Source: Reclinomonas americana ATCC 50394
Lineage: Eukaryota
Assembly (NCBI GenBank): GCA_048213135.1
Contig: PS015039.1
Location: 230,799 to 250,798 of the forward strand
Direction of reading: 5' to 3'
Length of the DNA: 20,000 nt
Below are positions 1,422-19,500 of this stretch, in pieces. Under the pieces are notes generated by a model. The model made no database searches and was not told where the DNA came from. It was given only the letters and a program-made list of their open reading frames with translations. Both the position numbers and the translations under genes were made by a program. Each line of letters begins with the position of its first letter. The stretch's first letter is position 1.

Positions 1422-4400
1422 TTATACCCTGCGCGCGATTATTGATTGACACACAAGTTAGTGCAGATCACCATAATACTCATGGTGACGGCGATGGCGA
1501 CTGCAACTCACCGCAGAAGGGAGAATGGCCGTCCCTCAGCACCGGCACTAGCTCCAGTTGGTCCCATGACCGCACCGTGCTGTACCAGCAGACGGGTCTG
1601 TCGTGGCAGCAGGCCCTTGACTCCCGCCAGACTCACTCCAACAAGATTAAGTGATCGCAAATCCACCAGCGGCTGTCGGCATCACAGCAAGTCAGGACAC
1701 ATACACACAAAGACGACTCGCACTCCACGCACCGCAGCAGCAGCAACACCGTCACCCTGCGCCGCCAGCGATATCGCTGTCAGCCAGTGGAACGTCAGCT
1801 TGTCGCCCATTATCTGGAAGTGCAGCACATCGACGTGTTCGCCGTCTGGTGTGAAACGATACAGCGCCTTTTCCTTGTCGCTCGTCGGTCTGACAACGAG
1901 GCGGATGGTGTCAAGAGAGCGCACATCCCGAATGCGACCTCCGCGTCGCGTCTCGTACCACGTGCCCTGCAGCACCCCCCTGCAGTCAGCGAGATGTCCC
2001 GAATACAGAATGCCACTACCCACAACGCACCACGAAGAGCGCGCCAGGCGACAAGCACAGGTTCACGATACGAGGTGCGCAGCTGAAACGATGCCAGCTG
2101 CCTCGTTCAACGCCCGATTCGACATCCCACAGTACAACACCGCCGTCGTGAGACAGAGATGCGAGCGTGTTGCCGGATGGATCGAACTCGACACTGCGTG
2201 TTGTCGCGTGAGTCGTGCGCCTCTGCGTTTGTCAATGCAGCGGCGACAACGGATTACCAGGTGATGAATGACCGCTCGTGTTTCGGGCTGCACAGGGTCT
2301 TGCTCCGCCGGTACAGCCGTTTCTCGACGTCCCATTGCCAGATGGTCACCTTGGAATCCATTCCGCCCGACGCAAGAAGCTGCACTCCGTCGGCACGGGG
2401 CTCACAGAATCGCACGCACTGCATGATAGGCAATGAGAAAACGGGAGCGAGTCGACATCACAAGACACATATGAACGCACCGTGACACCGTCGCGGTGGC
2501 CGAGCAGCGTCTGCGCCGGTGACACCAAGGTGTGTACAGTCTGCAACGCGCGAAAGTGAGATCGAATGCAATCAGAGTTCGGGCACAGATTGCTTCACCT
2601 CGCCAGCCAGTGGCAAAGTCCAGATGTCGATGCGATTGTCGCGACGAGCAGTGGCCTGTCCGCCAAGCAAACGTGAACAACGTTGTCAAAGGAAACAGAA
2701 CACGAGTACGCGCTCACCATTGTCTTTCCGTCACTCGACAGCGCCATGCTGACAGTCGAGATACTTCCACGATCAATGTAGAACAGCAGACGCCCGTCGT
2801 TGAGTGCCCACACAAAGGTCTTGCCGCCGGTGCAGCTGGCAGCGAAGAGAACTCGGTCGGATGCCGCGCCAGAGAAACAGCTGCTGATGAAGCGGTTCTC
2901 CATTGTGGAGCGACGCTCCAAAATCACGGTAGGCAACACCGCCTGACCACTGGCGGCCTCCGTGGTCCACGCGCGTGGACGTGGCGATCCGCTCATGTAG
3001 TCGACCGCCACCACGTGGCGCAGGTCGGGAGAGCAGTAGATCGCCCGTTGAGAGTCCGGACGCGGCGGTGCCACGATGCGCTCGTCACCGAGCATCCACG
3101 AGCGCACCGTCTGATCAGCAGACGCGGAGACAAGCCGCTCACGGCCATTTCGCTCGCGGGCAAAGCGAACACTGCGCACCCATCCGCTGTGTGCACTGAT
3201 ACTGCGCAGAAGGCGCCAGCTTTCCGTGTCGAACAGACACACAGTGCAGTCGTTGCCGCAGGACGCAAGATACGAGCCATCGGCAGAGAAGTTCAGATCC
3301 CACACCTGCACTTGCACGTTAGCGGCACGCCACAACGATTGAGAAGCGGGAAGAACGCACCCAGCCGGTGTGCTCTCGCAGCGTGTGCTCCACCACCCAC
3401 GTGCTGTCGTCGGAGGTACTTTGCAGCCACACACGGACGGCCTGATCACGTCCGCCCGTGGCGATCACGGAAGGCAGCTGCGAACGGACGGCGACGGCAT
3501 TGACACTGTCGGAGTGCTTCAGTGGTTTGGAGCGCGGAACCCACACTTGTTCGTCGTCTTGCTGTGAGGTCGAACCGGCGGGCAGCTGCTGCTCCCACAG
3601 GCGCACCATTCCGTCCCAGCTTGCCGACACCAGCACTTCGACGCCGTCAACTACTGCAAACGTCACATCTTGGACGGGACCGGAGTGGCCGTGCAGCACG
3701 CCGTGCGGAAGCAGCTTCAAGCGACCCGCTGCACACTTGTAGAGCCGAATCTGCGCGATCAACCAAGAAAGAATGAGCACTGGCGTGCACAAGAATAGTG
3801 AAAGACTGACAACTCTCGTCATGCCGCCGTCCACCTACCGTGTGATTGGAGAAGCCGACAGCGAGCAAGCCGAGGTGAGGAGTCGAAAATGCCAAGCTTT
3901 CGGTGCAGTACGGGCGCGACGTAGCAGTGTGAGCCAGCTGTGCGACGAATCAATGTCAGGCCGCTGCAAGTTAAGGGTCACGCTTGCCAGTTAAAGACGC
4001 AACCACACGCTCGCACAACATGGGAGCCACTTGCAGGTCACAGAGGTTGACAGCAATATCTGCAGTGGCAATGCGCATTTAAAAACCCCCGTGCAACAAC
4101 AGTCACCCAGTGCTGACCACGCAACAGCTCTCATCGGTGAACGAGAAGGAGCGGTCAAACTCGGTGCACAGTCGATTCATCACATGTTGCAGTTCGGTGT
4201 CATTCACATCGACCAAGTCCGCGTGCGTGAACAGCACCAGCAAGTCAGGCTGCGTGCATCAACATGAGTGCTGTGCGCCACACTCAAGACGATCCCACTA
4301 TGCGAACGAAACTCTCAGTCCGCGGATCGATGCCAGGTGCGGTGCGCATGTTACCAGCATGGACAACCACTGCACTTGGTCCTGCAGTGATCGTGCTGTG

Positions 4401-7400
4401 GCAAGGATGAAGATGTTGAGCAAGAACAATGCAACCCGCCTGCCAGCACAGCAGCATCAAGACGCAACAGGAGCTTAGGTCGACGGTGAGGCACACCAGC
4501 GCCACCGACTGCCCTGTGGAAGGCACTGTATCCCCGCATATGAATGTTGGTCACACGGATTGAAGAAACACACAAGAAATTGCAACGGAGAATGCACACA
4601 CACACCAAATGCGGCCGTCATGTCGGACTCGTTCTCCACGACAACAATCTCGAAGCTCGCCTCCTCCGTATCGATGCGACTCACGCCACCGCTCTCATCG
4701 ACCGACGACGACGTGTGACGACGGAGAACTCCAACCAACTCGGCTTTGCCGGATTCAGGCGGACCGAGCACCACACTGCGAAAAAAATGTGCATGAGCGA
4801 GAAGACGACAGCCACTCAGCGTGCCACACAAACACGCAACATGCGACAAGAAGTCATTGGGTGACGGGCGCGGGTGCCGGGACTTGCAGACTCGGCGGTC
4901 GAATTGCAGCAGCAACTATCGTCGACCTGGTCGACCAATTCCAGCCGGTCGTCGTCGCCTCGTTGGAACAGGCACACATCGCAGCCCTTGCCACCCGACG
5001 CCACGTATCGTCCATCCAGCGAGAATTCGACCACCGGCGGTGCATCCTTGTGTTCGTGCACCACACCGCAATCGACTCCGTCCTCGGCATACAGACGAAT
5101 CGTGCCATCGCTGCAACAGCTCACGCATTCGGATCGAATCACACCATCGCACACGCCACATAAAAATGCTTACCGACACGCCGTGACCATCAATGGTGAA
5201 GTCGGGCAGCAGGCGAGCGAATTGATGCCGACATCGTGACCCGGCTGACACGGCACCTCCGTGACCGGCAGCTGATTGAACGAGCAGCCCTCCAAATTCG
5301 CACCCTCCAGCTTCGCATTCGGCGCCCACACGCCCTCCAAATAGGCACCACGCATGTCGGCACCTCGCAAATCGACGCCCTCCAGCGACGCAAACGAAAG
5401 ATTCGCTCCACATGCCGCCACGTTGCGCATGTCACCGGCCAGTCGCGGATCGGTGGCGAATTCGAAGCCACACCAGTTGAGAAGCGAAATGGCTGAACGA
5501 TGCAAGTTGTGTGCTTTCAGCAACACAAACAGGAAGGCAGAGAGGTTGTGCACGCAGTGCGTCTCACCATTGCCTGACGCGACGCTAATCTTGGCGGCGT
5601 ATTCCTTGTTCTTGGAGAGTCGGACCAAGCGGACGAGCTGATCTTGCAGGCGTGGTGTGTGCTTCAACAGATCCGCATAGAAGACCAACAGAGCGTAGAA
5701 CTTGGTCAGCGGCAGCGTATTCAGGGCAGTCACACCCTGGGCGATCCGAATAAACTCCTCGTCGTCATCATCGGGAGCACTGCATCGCCAGCGCGTGTTA
5801 GACGCTGCTGCACCGCACAGAGGCCACCCCAATCAACGCAACTCCAACAGCACCAGCGTACTGCGCACGTAAAAGTACTGCCGGATCACGTCGTAGCTGA
5901 AGCTCCAAATCTGCGGCAGAATAATACACGTCGGTTGTGCAAGCCCCACAACAACCACGCAGTCGATCCTCACCTCTGACTGGGAGCCAATTCGGTACTC
6001 CAGCACAGTCATCTCGAGTGGGCACGAGTCCAACAGAAGCTCGGGGTCCATGACAGCGCCGTCCTTGTACAGTGGACCAAGGCGCTTGGCTGGATTGTGC
6101 GGCTGCACAAAGACAAACTCGCGCGACACAAACATCTTCAGCGCCAACCGCTGGCAATAGTCGAGCAGTTCGTCCTCGGTGGGCACTCGGTCGTCAACCC
6201 GGCTGCGCGCATCCAGTGCCCGGCGCATGCGCTCGCGAACAAACTGGTCCAACAGGCGCCACTGGAGCGGGATTCGCCCGCCCAACAACGCCGCGTGGCT
6301 CATGGTCGACTCGCACAGCTGGTCAATGACCAGGCGCAAAAACAGCGGGAAACGCATGAGGTCGCTCAGTTCCGTGGCGGCACTCAGCGCCTCGCTAATG
6401 ACATCAAACATGTCCTGGCGCGGCACGTACGCTCGCACGAAATCACGAATCTGCGAGTTGGACAGCGGAGCAAGTGCCACCACGCACAGCCGCCCGGCGT
6501 CCGGCTGACCAGTGCGCGTGGACAGCGGAGCGAACAGAGTCGGCAACTCGGGTTTCACCGGACTCAGCACGAAGCGCTGGCGACACGTGATGACCAACTT
6601 GGCATTCTTCCAATCGGCCAGCTGACAGACGAGCACGGGCGTACAAGAGTGAAAAAATGCGGTTGTGTGTGTGGAAAACAAGGACTCGGCGCAAACCTCA
6701 GGGAACTGAGTGAACACGCTCTTCTCCACCATGAGACTCTCCCAACCGTCCAGGAAGAACACCGTCGGCAAGTTGCGCAGCTCGTTGATTTCGCTGTCGG
6801 AGAAGCTGACGCACTCTGGCGCACGACGCAGCCACTCGCTCGGTCCAATCATGCGGCCGTCGACCCTAGCAAACGACAGCGTCTGGTGCACCGGAAAGAA
6901 ATTCTGCGAGCCTGCACCCCATCGTTCGGCCAGCGAACGAGTTGCCTGCACAGAGAATGTTCTGCGCGCGTGTGCACGAGAAACACATAAGTCAGCTTAA
7001 GGCCTCGCACTCGTCATCCGCTCGCCCCGTTGAGACGCAACGTTTTCCCGGAACCAACATCAGCCAAAACCACCATGACGCTCTGCACAGATTGGATGTG
7101 AGCGAATGGTTGTGGCAACAAGCGGCGGACAAGAAAGCAAGGAGACCTTGTGAGGCGACTGAAGAAAGGTCTCTAGACGGCCAAATAGGTCCTGCAGTCT
7201 GTTGCCTGCACCGGGTGCCTTTGGAGCAATGTACACGTCGGTGGCCTTGAAGCGCTGCTCCAGCAGGGTCTCTTGTGTCATCAGAAACATGTCGAGTTTG
7301 GTACGCACTGCCGCGATGACATATGAGGACAGAGAAAGAAAGCACAGCATTTTTCTCTCGATAGACAACTCACATCCAGAGCCGAGGTTGACATCCGACA

Positions 7401-10400
7401 CCGTACGCGGTAGCACACTGAACGCGTCAGTGTCGGAGCTTGAGGCACCCGCCGAAGGCAGAGTGACTGAACCGCTGCGCTGGTTGAAACTGCGCGCCAT
7501 CCCACCGCTCGCATGCATGTCGTCGTACAGCAGGCACTCGTTCCAGCGCTCTGCGCGGGGCACGATCATGTCAGCACTCGCAAACGGAATGACAAGGAGG
7601 TGAAAACAGGTCGCACACCATTGCGCTCCCGCATGGCCAGCAAGTGGTAGTCACGGTCGGAGAGGCACGGGTCACTGCTTCGTCGTGGCAGCGCCACCGG
7701 CTGCAGAAAGGTGGTGCTGGTGACCGAGCGGGCCAGCGTCGCTCGCTGCGTGTCGGCGTCTTGTTCCGCTGCGGGTGAGGACAGTAAGGCCGCTCCCGCC
7801 GCCGCCTCGTCGTCATCATCGCTGACGTCGATGAACGAATCTGTATCCAGCACGTTGCCGACAGGAACCGTGACGTAGTGGCGGTCGAAGACGTCCAGTT
7901 CGCAATCGTCGTCACCGGCGACACTCACATTGTCGGCACTCACATGTCGCACAGGTGGTGTGGTACCGAGAGACGATGGCGAGCTACTGCGCGAAGCGGC
8001 CGACTTGACCAACACAGGAGTCGGCAACAGACGCAGTGCACGGCTTGCCACGGCGTCGCTGACCAGGGGCAGAACGAAAACGGTGGAGAGCGGGATGTGT
8101 GCCGACTGCTCGGCGCTGGCGGTCAGCACTGCTGACTCGGTGACGGCGGCGGCGTCCAGCGGTCGCACAAGGAGCTCGTCCACTGCGAGCAGGTGGGTGA
8201 GAATCAAAGTGAAGCACCGCTGGAAACGCGTGAGACAGCGACTACTCAACGATGTTGCAGATGCTCGTCCAACACCACGCGGCACGCCTGAATGCGCGCC
8301 TCAAAGGCCAGCTCCTCGAATCGCTGCGAGTCCACTCGAAGGCGAAGCTCAAGAGCAACAAAGTCGGGAGTGGGCGTGGCCGATTGCAGGTCGACAAACT
8401 GCAAAAATAAAAAAAGACGAAACGTGTTAGATCGATCGATGGTTGATCGCAAGTACATCTCAGCACTACGCACCGTCGGATCAACGAATGGTGCTGAGTG
8501 CTCCCGGATTCTGTGCAGCACATGGCACAACAAGGCCGCCACTGCGTAATTGAGATGCACGTACGCCTCGAAGAGGAGCTCCTCCACCAACTGCGGCGGG
8601 AAAGTAATAGAGAGCGGGTGAGAAAGCAAGAAGGGAAGATGGGGATACAAGGAGACGCAACTGCAGCAGCCTGCTCGTCGTCACTCAGCAGCGGCAGTGT
8701 GCATTGCAACACTGTGCCGACCACAGCAATGTCGCAGCGGGCGGCAGCCAATAACAGGGCATGCTGTCCGACGCGATTGCGCTGCACGAGAAGCATTTCT
8801 GCGGCCAGAGTCGGCGGAAGGGCGGCCACAAGAGCCACTGCATTGTGCGAGGTGAGGAAGGAATAAAAAATGGACGGGTAAGAAAAAGAAAAGAGAGAGA
8901 GGAGTGCGACGCACCAAGACCGGCCATCGCTGCAGACTTGCGCTCACTGCTCGCGTCTGTGCGCGAATCGTCCGACCCGCTGTCGTCGGCGGGCGACGAA
9001 ACCTAACAATCAACAAGCAAACCGTGAACAACAACTCGGATGGAGCTCACATGCCACAGAAACCAACGCACCGTAGAGGAGAGGTTGCCCTGCGAGCCCA
9101 CGGCGAGCAGCATGGGAAGATTGAGCAGCTCGCTGGTCATCAAGGTGGCCAGCTGTGCCGGAGGCACGACCGTCAGCTGGAGAATGGCCACGAAAACTTG
9201 CGGATGGGCAAGAGCGGCGAGTGCCAGCGGTGAAAATCCCACACCAACGGCGATTTCGTCGACCAAAGCCGCGCAGCTGGTGGGACGCAGTCAAAAAAAC
9301 GGACAGCGACCGGCCGGTGAGAAGAAGCGGGGAAAATGTGCGCAACAGTTCGGCGGGAGTGACGGTCGAGGCAATGCGGCGCAGCTGAGCAAAGTCGTCG
9401 TTGAGAATGGCCTGTTCCGTCGGCGAGGGGGTCGATGAGTGCACTGCCGATACAATGATGCAATCGAAAAAAAGGCAACGCACCTTGAAGAGAAGCATGC
9501 ACAGAGCTGCATGTGCGCCGCCGGTTCCGTTCGGTGTCTGCGGTGCTGGCGAAGCAGCCGAGACGAAGCCACCGGATCCACTGGCCGAGTGACCGGAGGA
9601 CATGGACGAGGCGCCGGGTGAGCCGTCGGTGGGCATGGAGCGGTTGGACGGGCGCCGGACGGCCACTGCGGGATCAGAAGAAGGGTAAGGAGAAGGGGAG
9701 GAGGGAGGAGAAGGGGGAAGGGGAAGGAGAAGGGAGAAGGAGAAGGGGAAGGAGAGGGAAAGGAGAAGGGGAAGAAAAAGGTGAAGGAAAAAGGGGAAGG
9801 AAAAGGGGGAAGGGGAGGAGAAGGCGGGGGGAGAAGGGGAGGAGAAGGCGGGAGGAGAAGGCGGGAGGAGAAGGGGAAGGAGTAGGGGAAGCAGAAGGGG
9901 GAAGGAACAGAAGTAAGGAGGGAAGGAACAGGGGGAAAGAAAAGGGGGAAGGGAAAGGGGGAAGGAGAAGGGGGAAGGAGACGGAAGAGGGGAGCAGTGA
10001 AGCGAAAATAAACCAAGAAAGAGAGAGAGAGCGAGAGAGTAAAAACGCAACTCTTGCCAGATAGCTGCTGGGCAGGGAGGCGTCTCTCCACCACCAGCGT
10101 CACCCACTGCTCCGACACCTCCACGTGCCCATCTGTGTGCAGCGTCGCAAAGTACACGTGCGTGCGTCCCTCTTTCTGCGCTCCCAGCACCTGTCGTGAG
10201 ATACAGCGCACCGGGGAGCATGAAAGGCACCCACAAAACGCACCTGAGCCAGCACCTGCACCTTGGTCTGCACATCATCGGTCGATGCACCGAGAGGGCG
10301 TACCGTCAACTCGTCCTGATCAAGTGTCGGTCAACAGGCAGTGCGTTGCGAAAAAAGAAGGCAGGCAGCGACTCGCAGCGACGCAACAAGGCGAACAAGA

Positions 10401-13570: not shown

Positions 13571-16500
13571 TTACGACCGGGGTGGATATTGTTTCCCGTT
13601 CACCGTCCACCGCGTAGGCGTCTGCTTCTCGGCCTCGACTTGCACCTGCGCCAGCAGCTGCGCGTTGCGGTAGACAGCATGCACGTCGGCGTTGGATTTC
13701 TGCACGGCGAATGCTGCAATGACACCGGCTGCGGTGCCGCTGGACCACTCCACCGGGTGCACGCGCGTGGCCGAGTTGACAATGAAACTCTGGCATGGTA
13801 GAGTGTAAGCACTAGCTGATATTCAGCGTTGCACACTGTACAGCGGAGCGCGCAAGCACCTGTGCCATGGTCTTGCCGGCGGCGACCAAGTTGGTGAACT
13901 TGGCGTTGGTGAAGGCGCGGTAGGGCAAGTAGAAGGGCAGGATGGGCCAGTCCTGGAAGACGGGCTTGGGCCACGAACAGCCGAGCACCGGGTGAATGTC
14001 GACATCGTAGCAGCCGATCGCCATGCGGTCGTCGTAAATGTGTGCCACCAGCAGGTCGGGGGTGGGGAGGCCCGAGATCTCCGTCACTTGCATCTGGAAT
14101 TGGTCCAGGCCCACCGAGCGGCGTGTGTCGCGCATGTATGGGTACTGTGCAAAGGGAGAAGGGTAAGGGAAGGGGAGGGGAAGGGGAAGGGGAAGGAGGG
14201 GAAGGGGAAAGGGAAGGGGAGGGGAAGGGGAAAGGGAATGGGAAGAGGAAGGGTGGGGGAAAGGGTGGGGGAAAGGCGGTGAGAGAAAGCAAGAGGGGAA
14301 GATGAGTGGAGAACGGTGGTGAAGAGGAAATGCAAACGGAAAGGGAAGAGAAGGAGAGGAGGGTGGTGGGGGAACGGAAAGGAGAAGGGGGAGGGAAGGG
14401 TGGGGTGAAGGGGAAGGGTAAACAGGAAGGGAAGAGTGGGGCGTTGAGGGAAGGGGAGGAGGACGGTGAGGGAGTGGAAATGGACAGGGAAGAGCGGCGT
14501 GGGGAAGTGAGGGCACGGTGGGAATGGGGAGAGAAGGATCGGTGGGCTGCCGCGAAGACATGAGGTCGATCGACGAGCATACTGGCAAGCTGAGAGGAGA
14601 AAGCAACTGCATGAACAGAAGAGTGCAGCAAGGAGAAGTGATGAGCGTGCTGCCATGCCACGGGCTTGTGCACGTGGCAATGCAACGGAGAAGAGACGAA
14701 GACAGAGTGCGGAGGTGAGCGCGAGACAGAAAGGGCGGAGAGCGAGAAAGAAAGGAGATGACACAACCTTCAGAAAGAGACAGCGTTGCATGAACCGAGA
14801 ACCGAGGACCAAAAGAAAAGAATAGAATGAAGAGACGAGAGGCAGTGACCAACCTTGGCAAGTCCATGACAGGTGCCCACAACGGAGCGAGCGAGTGTGA
14901 CACGGCCGCCGCTCTCCTTCGGGTCGGTGGTGGCGTTCTTGTACCAGAAGTGCCAGCCCATGGCGAGTTCCTCGCCGATGCGAATGGCATCGAGGCTGAC
15001 ACCACCCGTCCACGTACCGTTGCGAACACGCTGTTGCGCGTCAGCCATGCTCTCGAGCGTGTACGCAAACACATTGTCGTTGCCTTTTGACCAGTTCTGC
15101 AGCGTAATGTCGCCCAGTCGCACCGAGCCGTCGTTGGGTGCCGTGGTCTGCAGACGGCGGTACGTCCACACACGATCCCACGCGTACGTGGCCAGCGAGT
15201 AGCGCGACTCGAACTGGGGTGGCGGCGGGCCGAATGGGTTGTCGGGCTCCGGAACGGGTACTTCGTGGAGCTCCTGGTGGAGGGCGAAGGAGAGGGGGGA
15301 GGGGAGGGGGAGAAAAGGGGAGGGCGCGATGTCATTCACTCACAGTTTCCCACCATCCCACATTCCTTCCATCCTCTGCTCCATTCCACTCTATCAGCTC
15401 CAGTCTGCTCCACTCTGTACTGCTCCACATCATTCTGCTCCGCTCCACTCTGCTCCACACCATTCTGCTCCACTCTGCTCCACACCATTCTGCTCCACAC
15501 CATTCTGCTCCACACCATTCTGCTCAATACGCTCCACCTCCTGCACTCCGATATGCTCAACGCCACTACACTCCACGTTACTCCACTCCAGTCCACTCCA
15601 CTTTCCTCCGTTTCTCTCTCTCTCTCACCCTCCCTCCTTTACCCACTTACCTCGGCGAAATCAAACGTCGACGACTGCCCACACACATCCGACGTGCCAC
15701 CCACATCAATTATGCCCTGCGTGTACGGCGCCTCGCTCAACGCCAGCAACTCGCCCCACTCGGTGGCCTCCACAAACACCGCAGCCGTAAACTGCAGCAC
15801 GCGCTTGCTGAAATGCACCGAGTCCACCGGCGAGTACCAGTCGGGCAGCTGCTGGTACATGAACTGGCACGTGGTCGTGTCGAGGCTGGTGCGCTGCACG
15901 GCACGCAGCGAGGTGATGGCAGTGCCGGCGGCATTGGTGGTCACGCCCACCGGCACCGTGTTGTAGTAGATGCGGAGGGTGCTGCCGAGGGCCGCCACCG
16001 CCGGTTGCACGCATTCGGAGAGGAAGCGGAGGGGGAGGAAGCTGATGGAGAGGGGAAGGCATGAGGAGGAGGAGGAGGAGGAGGAGGAGAAGGTGGCGGA
16101 GGAGGAGGAGGAGGAGGAGGAGGAGGAGGAGGAGGAGAAGAAGAAGAAGAAGAAGAAGAAGAAGNNNNNNNNNNNNNNNNNNNNNNNNNNNNNNNNNNNN
16201 NNNNNNNNNNNNNNNNNNNNNNNNNNNNNNGGACGAGCACGTGGAAGGGGTGGAGAAGATGGGAGGAGAGAAAACAGAGGTGGAGAATGAGAAAGATGCG
16301 TGGAGATAGGTGGGAAAGAGAGTGCGGCTGAAGCAAGAACGAGCCGAGAAGTTTGCGATATTGCAGAGAAGGTGAAAGGCGTGGAAATGATAAGAGTGAC
16401 GGTGGGCTGCGTCAGGAAGTTGAAGCAAGATAGAGAGACTGGAAGAATTGATAATGAGCGGGGTCTCCCTTTCTCCGTTGCTCGTTTCTTTGTTATTCTG

Positions 16501-19500
16501 CATCTCCTTGTTCCTCTCTTCCACTCCCTTCCCTCTCCCGCCTCACCTTGACAATGTCCCTCTGATGATGTTCGATCTCCCACGCCACCTTGTGCTTCGC
16601 AAAGGCCTCGTACAGACGCGACCGCGTCACGCGGCACAGACTGGCGTCCAATCGCCGCAGCTCCTCCATCACCAGCACAATCATATTGAGCATGATGGGC
16701 TGCGCATAGTGAGCGCAGCATCGTCAACGAGATGCATGCACGAGCAGACGCACCGATGCCGCCAGGTCGATGAGGCCAGGAATGTGGTCAATCTGCTCGC
16801 GATACTGCGTCCATGGACCGCTGCCGCGGCTACCGGCCGACTTTGACTCGACGAATCTGCGGGGGAGGGGATGAGAGTTGGAAATCGCCGCTGCACTACT
16901 GTGATGCCGGGCGACGGAACTTTTGCAAGAACAAATCAATGTCCTCGAGCGCAAACAGGCGCAGCATGCATCGTGCAAGTGTGCGTTCCGGCTGCATACC
17001 CAATTCCTGTCGCGCCGCGCGTGGATTCACGGGAACAAAGCACTGCTCGGCCCAAAAGTTGCCGATGCGACTAATGTACTCGCGTCGCACGGATACGACG
17101 AGCAGCACGTTGTGCCACGCCTGAATGGGGAGCTGAGTGAGTGACGTACAGAAGGAGGTATGACGGATGGGGAACGGAACATCGAGGCCGTGCGTCACGT
17201 AGAGATTGTCGATGGCGTCGCCGCATTCGTCGTAGCCGTCGAGAACGAGGACCACGGTGCCGATGGAGCGGAGCTGTGGAGACGGGGGTGGGGAAAGAGA
17301 ATGGAGTGGAAGTAATAGAGCACGAGTCGCACCTCATCCTCTGTGAGGTGCAGCGCTTCATCCGTCACCGTCATGTTGCTCTCCTGCAACAGATACGGCA
17401 TCAACTTGTCGGCGGTGCGCAGCACACGCTCGGGGATGCCAGGCAGCCGCGCCGACAGCACCAGGGTGTCCGGTCGCTGCGTGAGGCGTGCGGTAAACTG
17501 TCGCAGCAGCACCGATTTGCCACCTCCGGACCAGCCGGCGACCACCAGGACCTGCGTGCGACAGAGATGGGTGAGCGGAGTGAGAGGGGAAGGGAGGAGA
17601 GGAAAAGACCTTGTCGGTGGGGTTTGTTCGACTGGCAAAGTTGTCGAGGAGGGTGTCGGCGGGCACGGCCACGAGGCGGCCGTTGGTGGAGTCGGCTTCG
17701 GTCTCGGTGCGGTTGGCCCAGAGGGGGACCTGGGAGGGGGAATGGGGAAAGGGGGAAGTGAGGGGAGGCAAAGGAGGAGGGGAAGAATGACAAGCGGAAA
17801 GGAACGAGGGCTGCTGACACATGTCGAGAAAATGCAAGAGGAACAAGTGAAGGAGCTGCATGAGAAGGCGGTGGAGAGCAAGGAGAAGAAGAAGGAGAAT
17901 GAGAGGGAGAAGAATGAGAGGGAGAAGGAGGAGAAGAAAGAAAGAAGAAGGGGATGAAGGAGGTAGAAGTGATGGTAAAGACGGGGGAAGAAGGAGTGGT
18001 GGCAGCAGGTGGAGGATAAAGCAGGGATTGGAGGGGGTGGAGGAAGAAGGAGAAGGTGGAAGAAGAAGAACAACAACAAGGAGAAGGAAGAGAAGATGAA
18101 TAAGGCGAAGGTGGAAGAAGATGAAGGAGGTGGAGAAGCGGAGAGACGAGAGAACACAATCGAGGCTGCATGATGAAGAAGAAGAAGAAGAACAACAAGG
18201 AGGAGGGAGAAGATGGAGAAGGAGAAGGTGGAAGAAGATGAAGGAGGTGGAGAAGCGATTGGATCATGGAGACGAGAAGAGACAATCGAGGCTGCATGAA
18301 GAAGAAGAGGAAGAACAACAACAAGGAGGTGGGAGAAGATGAAGAAGGAGAAGGTGGAAGAAAATGAAGGAGGTGGAGAAGCAATGGGACCACGGAGAAG
18401 AAGAAGAACAACAACAAGGAGGAGGAGGAGGAGGAGGGGAATGAGGAGGAGGAGGAGGGGAATGAGGAGGAGGAGGAGGGAGGAGGAGGAGGGGGAGGAG
18501 GAGGAGGAAGAAGAAGAAGAAGAGAGAGAAGAAGAAGAAGAGAGAGAAGAAGAAGAAGAAGAAGAAGAAGAAGAAGACGAGAAGGTGAAGAGCGACAAGA
18601 CACTGACGGGGAAGAGTGAGGAGAAGGGGAAGGCATGAGGAGAGGAAGACCAGAGATGAGAAGAAGTAGTGGAAGAAGAAGACGAAGGAGGAGGAGGAGG
18701 AGGAGAGACTGACCAGTTCGTGGAGACCCAGCAATGACCCGTGTCGCCGAGCTTCTGCAGGCATTGGAGAAAGTTGGGCGTGACATTGGCCGGATCGTGC
18801 GCCACATCGCTGACGTGATACGTAAAGTTGCCATTGACAAGCGTGTGCCTGCATGCCAACACAGAATGCACCTCAATGACTCCCACTCTCTCGGATCAAT
18901 CACAGTTGGGGAATGTACCATGCAAAGTCCACTGCTGGCACTGCACTCGCTGTCAGCTGACCGCCGACCCAGTCAGTGGGCTCAAGCTGGAAGGCAGAGA
19001 ATGACAATGAGTGAGTGAAAGAGTGTGTGAAAGAGTGCGAGAGTGAGCGGAAGAGTACGAGAGTGAGTGAAAGAGTGAGGGAGTGAGTGAATGAGTGAGG
19101 GAGTGTGTGAAAGAGTGTGAAAGAGTGAGGGTGGGTGAGTGAATGAGTGTGTGAAAGAGTGAGGGAGTGTGTGCGAGTGTGTGAAAGAGTGTATGAGTGT
19201 GCGAGTGAGTGCAGTGAGCGAGCAGAAGGACGTGAGGCTGCGCGAGTGATCATGATGAGATGCACAGTGTGAGACAACATCTTCACAATGCAGACTCCCT
19301 CTTTCCCCCTCTCTCTCCCCCTCTCCCCGCCTGCTCTCACCAGACACGTGCTCACACCACGCGAGGCCGAGGCGAGCGCCGCAGCGAGCGCCGATGTCGA
19401 CCTGATATCGAATCATCATCATGACTCCGCCACAAAAACCAACATGCATCACACAGACACACTCACTCACCCGCCAGCAATCACCACATCGCATTCCTCA

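Follow-up and report, generated by a model that had tools for sequence, protein, structure and literature searches.

A 20,000-nucleotide stretch of the genome of the protist Reclinomonas americana ATCC 50394 (assembly GCA_048213135.1, contig PS015039.1, positions 230,799 to 250,798 of the forward strand; hereafter, the window) carries a long minus-strand gene that we interpret as encoding an NLR-like STAND protein, and the first seven-bladed WD40 propeller predicted for this protein is interrupted by an unusual coding insertion. Specifically, five small predicted exons (4775-4004 on the minus strand; all coordinates are those of the window) encode approximately 148 residues between WD40 repeats 2 and 3. 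On balance, and by a modest degree, our analyses favor a model in which this insert is a degenerate G domain of the Ras/Roc superfamily that loops out between the two repeats as a pseudoGTPase and has a binding role. The fold assignment taken by itself is the firmer part of this model, and we consider it probable.

The Insert as a Coding Unit

The window is eukaryotic and intron-rich. Ten predicted exons, running from 5781 to 2650 on the minus strand, read through as a single open frame that is 819 codons long and contains 0 stops. Within this set, the seven exons from 5110 to 3839, which include the five of the insert, are joined into one open frame by six modeled introns of 65, 92, 73, 105, 66, and 66 nucleotides. 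The acceptors of all six end in CAG, and the donors of four (at 4840, 4468, 4125, and 4003) consist of the heptamer GTTGCGT, with the preceding exon ending in T or G. This heptamer is strand-specific, occurring 10 times on the minus strand of the window and 0 times on the plus strand; the minus-strand sites listed have their first base at 10387, 10051, 8661, 7041, 5842, 4840, 4468, 4125, and 4003. Codon statistics point in the same direction as the splice signals. The GC fractions of the insert at codon positions 1, 2, and 3 are 0.62, 0.38, and 0.73, compared with 0.57-0.69, 0.43-0.56, and 0.70-0.74 in four neighboring exons, and its codon log-likelihood is +0.38 bits per codon in the modeled frame, against -0.30 and -0.40 in the other two frames and -0.07 to -0.21 in the introns. 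Because the splice phases agree, four strand-specific GTTGCGT donors fall at the exon ends, and the codon statistics fit the modeled frame, the exons of the insert are supported; as a set they exceed what chance would produce and look like a genuine coding insertion, the junctions themselves being predictions.

The division of the insert among its exons follows the order of elements in a G domain, as judged from the exon model and, for exons A to D, from profile alignment (hhalign) to Ras/Roc reference domains. Exon A (4606-4775) would contain strand 1, the P-loop, helix 1, the switch I region, and strands 2 and 3. Exon B (4469-4513), which ends at a T/GTTGCGT donor at 4468, would supply strand 4, and exon C (4355-4395), followed by a GTAACA donor, would supply helix 3 with its conserved Trp. 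Strand 5, a G4-like motif, and helix 4 are assigned to exon D (4126-4249; donor T/GTTGCGT at 4125). Exon E (4004-4059; donor GTG/GTTGCGT at 4003) likely adds strand 6 (IAVNL) and a final helix of small size, helix 5, an assignment made by eye since the profile alignment ends at G4.

Position within the WD40 Propeller

The propeller repeats were delineated with Pfam and with a local WD40 profile derived from six of the repeats in P0004, one of the distant relatives of the gene described below. Ahead of the insert, this profile detects units at model residues 181-210 and 230-245, and Pfam WD40 matches the corresponding open reading frame (ORF; 4816-5169) with E=1.6e-4. The exon concerned (4841-5110) encodes the end of repeat 1, repeat 2, and a Ser/Pro/Cys-rich linker (4905-4849) that leads into the insert; its modeled donor is AT/GTTGCGT at 4840, and an alternative, GA/GTCTGC at 4891, lies in the same phase. 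The insert itself spans model residues 291-438. Its last codon is at 4004, and after an intron of 66 nucleotides the WD40 sequence is back at 3937, such that the insert lies just ahead of the His-containing start of repeat 3. The first unit beyond the insert is weak (model residues 451-456, independent E-value 0.2); it represents the first part of repeat 3 in the exon at 3839-3937, which has no Pfam match when taken alone, and the repeat continues in the exon at 3750-3361. Four clear units follow at model residues 490-523, 550-579, 598-627, and 640-671 (independent E-values 7.7e-9, 5.5e-4, 1.1e-8, and 1.9e-6), bringing the total to seven, of which units 2 and 3 flank the insert. To the region from 2650 to 3750 we assign repeats 4-7 along with the beginning of a second propeller; both the local profile and Pfam WD40 match there (Pfam E=1.9e-12 and 3.6e-12, for ORFs 3319-3834 and 2595-3464). 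In WD40 propellers, the loop that holds the insert is one that we take to lie on the top face, where ligands bind.

Motifs Retained and Lost

Measured against the signature motifs of small GTPases, the insert is incomplete. Its P-loop, GPPESGKA (4765-4742), departs from the G1 consensus GxxxxGK[S/T] in that the Gly and Lys are retained and the Ser/Thr is replaced by Ala. Where a DxxG motif is expected after strand 3, the translation instead contains VVVENES, at the end of a stretch at 4654-4625, and the DxxG column of the Ras/Roc alignment is occupied by ENE; the switch II region falls short of that in the reference domains by about a dozen residues. Among these references, GK[ST] is present in 46 of 46 and DxxG in 45 of 46, and the insert has neither in place. 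The tetrapeptide DESG (4699-4688), in the switch I region, is a DxxG by its letters in a noncanonical location, 16 residues past the P-loop and with no preceding hydrophobic strand. Farther along, VALVCLTVDLS (4505-4473) represents strand 4, WLSML (4369-4355) contains the Trp of helix 3, and LLVLFTHADL (4243-4214) represents strand 5 and G4. Within the latter, THAD (4228-4217) aligns with the NKxD column, with the Asp retained and the Lys changed to His. A G4 of the TH type (THTD) is found in 1 of the 46 reference domains, and LRRK2 reportedly has one as well. No G5 motif could be identified in the insert.

The preliminary description of this DNA had quoted GPPESGKA, VDLS, WL, and LVLFTHADL, and all of these are found on the minus strand at the places it had given. 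It had also reported that Ala replaces the P-loop Ser/Thr, that DxxG is missing, that two WD40 repeats precede the insert, and that the frame returns directly to WD40 without a COR domain; each of these observations is borne out by the data above, the absence of DxxG being that after strand 3 and the return occurring at repeat 3, with about 148 residues between the blades.

Comparison with Families of P-Loop Proteins

To place the insert among P-loop domains, we compared it with reference panels taken from bacterial genomes (reached by 16S primer match) that were searched with Pfam families, each reference domain being cut so as to begin 9 residues ahead of the Walker A motif and end 176 residues past it. 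The panels comprised 46 Ras/Roc, 29 MMR_HSR1, 20 cobW, 27 AAA, 9 ADK, 29 EutP, and 29 NACHT domains; an Arf (PF00025) query returned the same bacterial Ras/Roc proteins, and thus no separate Arf panel was made.

When the whole insert was aligned by hhalign, the Ras/Roc panel matched it over 103 columns, from G1 to G4 in order (P=8e-5, probability 61%). The six other families aligned over 19-28 columns, covering the P-loop only, with P values of 7.5e-5 (ADK), 3.8e-5 (NACHT), 2.4e-4 (EutP), 7e-4 (AAA), 1.2e-3 (MMR_HSR1), and 3.7e-3 (cobW). With HMMER, the Ras/Roc score was 5.3 bits, a value reached by 0 of 3000 full shuffles of the insert, compared with 1 (ADK), 11 (EutP), 48 (NACHT), 60 (MMR_HSR1), 99 (AAA), and 120 (cobW) of 3000 for the scores of the other families. 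The contribution of the P-loop was then held constant by fixing the first 22 residues and shuffling the rest. Under this regime, the real Ras/Roc score was reached by 67 of 3000 shuffles with HMMER and by 2 of 196 with hhalign, and the HMMER counts, again of 3000, were 1497 for ADK, 1621 for EutP, 1704 for NACHT, 626 for cobW, 326 for AAA, and 224 for MMR_HSR1. The tail alone (residues 23-148) gave a consistent picture: against Ras/Roc, 21 of 3000 shuffles reached its HMMER score, and hhalign aligned 50 columns in register, spanning strand 4, helix 3, and strand 5/G4 (P=0.0058), whereas the six other families gave 204 of 3000 or worse with HMMER and P>=0.075 with hhalign. Collectively, these comparisons suggest a modest similarity past the P-loop that, among the seven families tested, is specific to Ras/Roc.

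Dividing the Ras/Roc panel yielded a further hint, and only a hint, that the insert fits better to G domains of large multidomain proteins: the subset from such proteins (28 sequences) aligned over 98 columns (P=1.9e-4; 1 of 3000 shuffles), and the subset of small stand-alone GTPases (18 sequences) aligned over 19 columns (10 of 3000 shuffles). A protein-language-model atlas provides a lead, short of proof. All named clusters among the neighbors listed for exon A are of small-GTPase type (EutP, RagA, Ras, Arf, IFT27, and Roc), at similarities of 0.89-0.93. EutP/PduV, the top neighbor, was considered as an identity for the insert and rejected, given that its alignment covers 22 P-loop columns only, with no signal in the tail. 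The notion that the insert is a copy of the NTPase of its own gene, or of any other part of the window, was likewise discarded: among the 286 remaining ORFs of the window, phmmer scored none better than E=3.4.

The preliminary description had called the insert a Roc-like GTPase, and this identification stands in part: Ras/Roc is favored over six other P-loop families, but a placement in Roc rather than in another branch of the Ras superfamily is not established. The Pfam Roc family (PF08477), which it had suggested as a check, is not matched by exon A or exon D singly. The result that it had named as counting against the claim, no hit to a P-loop GTPase fold, did not come about at the level of sequence profiles.

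The Receptor-Like Gene and Its Relatives

From upstream to downstream on the minus strand, the gene that holds the insert begins with an N-terminal orphan region and continues with a Walker A motif, an NTPase exon, pentapeptide repeats, and the long WD40 run. The Walker A motif of the gene's own STAND/NACHT-like NTPase, read from the sequence as VLADVGSGKT (approximately 7040-7080), lies in an ORF piece at 7014-7172, and the heptamer scan places a GTTGCGT donor at 7041. The exon at 5833-6996 encodes 387 residues of the NTPase, including a Walker B-like FFLDGWES, and matches 0 Pfam families at E<=1, NACHT and NB-ARC included. Pentapeptide repeats lie between the NTPase and the WD40 region at 5332-5430 (Pfam PF00805, E=6e-13; residues 135-167 of ORF 5170-5832). 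Among 1.84 billion representative proteins, the NTPase exon has only five relatives, whose E values span 2.8e-5 to 8.2e-4, not one of them reaching E<=1e-10; one, P0001, combines ARM with NACHT, and two, P0004 and P0005, have WD40 propellers. We therefore read the gene as one for an NLR-like STAND protein from a lineage that is very isolated, with a predicted STAND/NACHT-like NTPase, pentapeptide repeats, and two WD40 propellers. The elements of an NLR with an integrated domain, namely a STAND NTPase, a repeat sensor, and an extra noncanonical domain, are all found in it.

Searches for closer homologs returned none. In the word-indexed protein collection, the NTPase exon had no homolog among the longer proteins and exon A had none. 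In metagenome contigs, the patterns of the NTPase exon and exon A were matched 96 and 594 times, respectively, and no relative was encoded at these matches; genome contigs searched with P0004 contained no related locus. The unusual build has so far been seen in a single gene.

Elsewhere in the window, ORF pieces at 13812-16787 on the minus strand match an FAD-dependent oxidoreductase family (PF12831, E=2.5e-9 and 1.1e-3) and probably belong to a neighboring gene. A 566-residue ORF at 17195-18895, also on the minus strand, has weak P-loop matches (AAA_22, 8.8e-4; Viral_helicase1, 2e-3; AAA_16, 4.7e-3) and may be a second NTPase gene.

Discussion

The present study suggests that, in the first propeller of an NLR-like protein, a G-domain-like module loops out between repeats 2 and 3 and that this module has lost the activity of its presumptive relatives. 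Given the Ala at the P-loop Ser/Thr position, the ENES at the Walker B/DxxG position, and the shortened switch II, we infer that the insert would be unable to hydrolyze GTP. Binding of Mg-nucleotide would probably be weak or lacking; some nucleotide binding remains conceivable since the P-loop Lys and the G4 Asp are retained. Held on a flexible linker, the insert would most plausibly add a fixed protein-binding surface to the sensor propeller. By analogy with the alpha-I domain of integrins, it could act as the ligand-binding module in its own right; alternatively, it could be an integrated bait. The bait idea is a special case of the added binding surface: a dead copy of a small GTPase would cause pathogen effectors that bind host small GTPases, or modify them, to trip the receptor. 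We regard this as improbable, and the same low expectation applies to its corollary, which would be an integrated-decoy strategy, independent of that in plants, aimed at the commonest class of effector target.

Several observations weigh against the model of a degenerate Ras/Roc-type G domain. Outside the P-loop, the Ras/Roc signal has a P of approximately 0.006-0.02 before correction for seven families, and a narrower, Roc-only profile (28 sequences) gave P=0.022, with 33 of 2000 shuffles reaching the score. Taken singly, the exons are uninformative in curated collections: exon A matches 0 Pfam families at E<=1 and exon D no relevant one, the best match of exon A in a PDB sequence search is UreG (E=1.5) and exon D has none, and the atlas search with exon D returned no named neighbor above 0.83. 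Most of switch II and helix 2 is lost, and the fold itself could be altered as a result. Conservation lends no support, because the searches found no close homologs of the gene and none of exon A, and the splice junctions are predictions from sequence. Finally, the reference domains are all bacterial, and for this reason Roc cannot be separated here from Ras, Rab, or other eukaryotic branches.

These points bear on how alternative explanations should be weighed. One is that the insert is a P-loop alpha/beta domain outside Ras/Roc, such as the remnant of a nucleotide kinase or of an AAA-type protein, or a lineage-specific fold with a Walker A motif. The P-loop form GPPxSGK is typical of adenylate kinases and AAA+ proteins, the matches of the P-loop alone to ADK and NACHT equal or surpass that to Ras/Roc, and the exons of the insert match no curated family, UreG being the best that the PDB offers. 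However, the competing matches extend no farther than 19-28 columns and disappear when the P-loop is held fixed, about half of the shuffles then scoring as well for ADK, NACHT, and EutP; Ras/Roc is the sole family for which strand 3, strand 4, helix 3, and strand 5/G4 align in order. We consider this explanation unlikely. A degenerate G domain might, in turn, still be a working nucleotide switch that binds GTP or GDP, lacks fast hydrolysis, and gates the receptor. The P-loop Gly and Lys and the Asp of THAD speak for such a switch, as does the occurrence of a TH-type G4 in a reference domain, and the published classes of pseudoGTPases, as set out in the part of PMC12490416 available to us, include nucleotide binders, class i being the nonbinding one. 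Nevertheless, a domain with Ala in place of the Mg-binding Ser/Thr, no DxxG, a switch II that is curtailed by about a dozen residues, and no identifiable G5 makes a poor candidate for a switch, and we judge this quite doubtful.

It is also conceivable that the exons are removed or otherwise spliced, such that the mature protein may be without the insert. An in-frame bypass, with phase 0 at both ends, can be drawn that starts at a GT following the Gln codon at 4929-4927 and runs to the acceptor at 3938, and this hypothetical event would leave a receptor that lacks the insert and has a plausible WD40 junction. Yet it requires an intron of 989 nucleotides with a GTCGAC donor unlike the others, compared with 65-105 nucleotides for the modeled introns, and five exons with coding-type GC at third codon positions, coding codon usage, matched phases, and, at four of the modeled introns, the strand-specific GTTGCGT donor would hardly arise by chance. 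Exons A to E total 436 nucleotides, and skipping them as a block from the modeled donor would therefore break the frame. We give this explanation very little credence. The degenerate Ras/Roc-type G domain with a binding role thus remains our preferred interpretation.

If confirmed, the gene would offer a clear case of a G-domain-like module nested in the WD40 propeller of a STAND/NLR-like receptor, and a tractable model for how new recognition surfaces arise in NLR-like sensors outside plants and animals. Its present weight is that of a single lineage-specific gene analyzed at the sequence level. Within the literature library that we searched, no paper was found to describe, for an NLR-like protein, a GTPase-like domain set inside a WD40 propeller, and among the matches listed, none had a title or opening abstract lines that describe a small-GTPase integrated domain.

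Roco proteins, including LRRK2, DAPK1, and bacterial Roco, provide the most obvious comparison. Like the protein described here, they place a Ras-like G domain in a large multidomain protein that can also contain WD40 repeats, and among the local profiles, the insert best matches G domains from large multidomain proteins of bacteria. In contrast, the insert has no COR or LRR, its G motifs are degenerate, and it lies inside the propeller of a STAND NTPase. According to the excerpted text of PMC6320773, Roc always adjoins COR by definition; because WD40 resumes directly and no COR follows, the predicted insert falls outside the Roco proteins and is not a Roco member, whatever its ancestry. As described in the sections of two further papers that were consulted, brown-algal Roco proteins with numerous partner domains have been proposed as immune receptors (PMC11378527), and algae and bacteria commonly have NB-WD40 proteins (PMC7145615); as far as they were examined, those sections describe no G domain nested in a propeller.

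PseudoGTPase domains, which the available portions of PMC12490416 and PMC5593906 describe as G-domain-like modules that lack signature motifs, bind proteins, and occur within larger proteins, provide a second comparison. If the insert has the G-domain fold, it would be a pseudoGTPase by the published classes, in so far as these are given in the text of PMC12490416 that was seen. The middle domains of p190RhoGAP and the N-terminal domain of AAGAB resemble it, in the partial accounts consulted, as motif-less G-domain-like modules in larger proteins, but they are not nested in a repeat domain, and the likeness drawn here to the insert is one of description. In its architecture, the insert is reminiscent of the integrin alpha-I (alpha-A) domain, whose place in its propeller is likewise between repeats 2 and 3. 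That domain, however, has a von Willebrand A fold with a MIDAS site and is inserted in an extracellular FG-GAP propeller, and thus the analogy is one of build, with no homology implied. Finally, the integrated (decoy) domains of plant NLRs are likewise extra noncanonical domains fused into NLR-type receptors. Plant NLRs, however, have an NB-ARC-LRR build, and their integrated domain mimics a known effector target, whereas the gene described here, for which no pathogen or effector link is known, would encode a NACHT-like/WD40 receptor of a protist with the domain nested in its propeller. If confirmed, this gene would thus unite three features that are each known separately: pseudoGTPase binding modules, insertion between propeller blades, and the integrated domains of NLRs.

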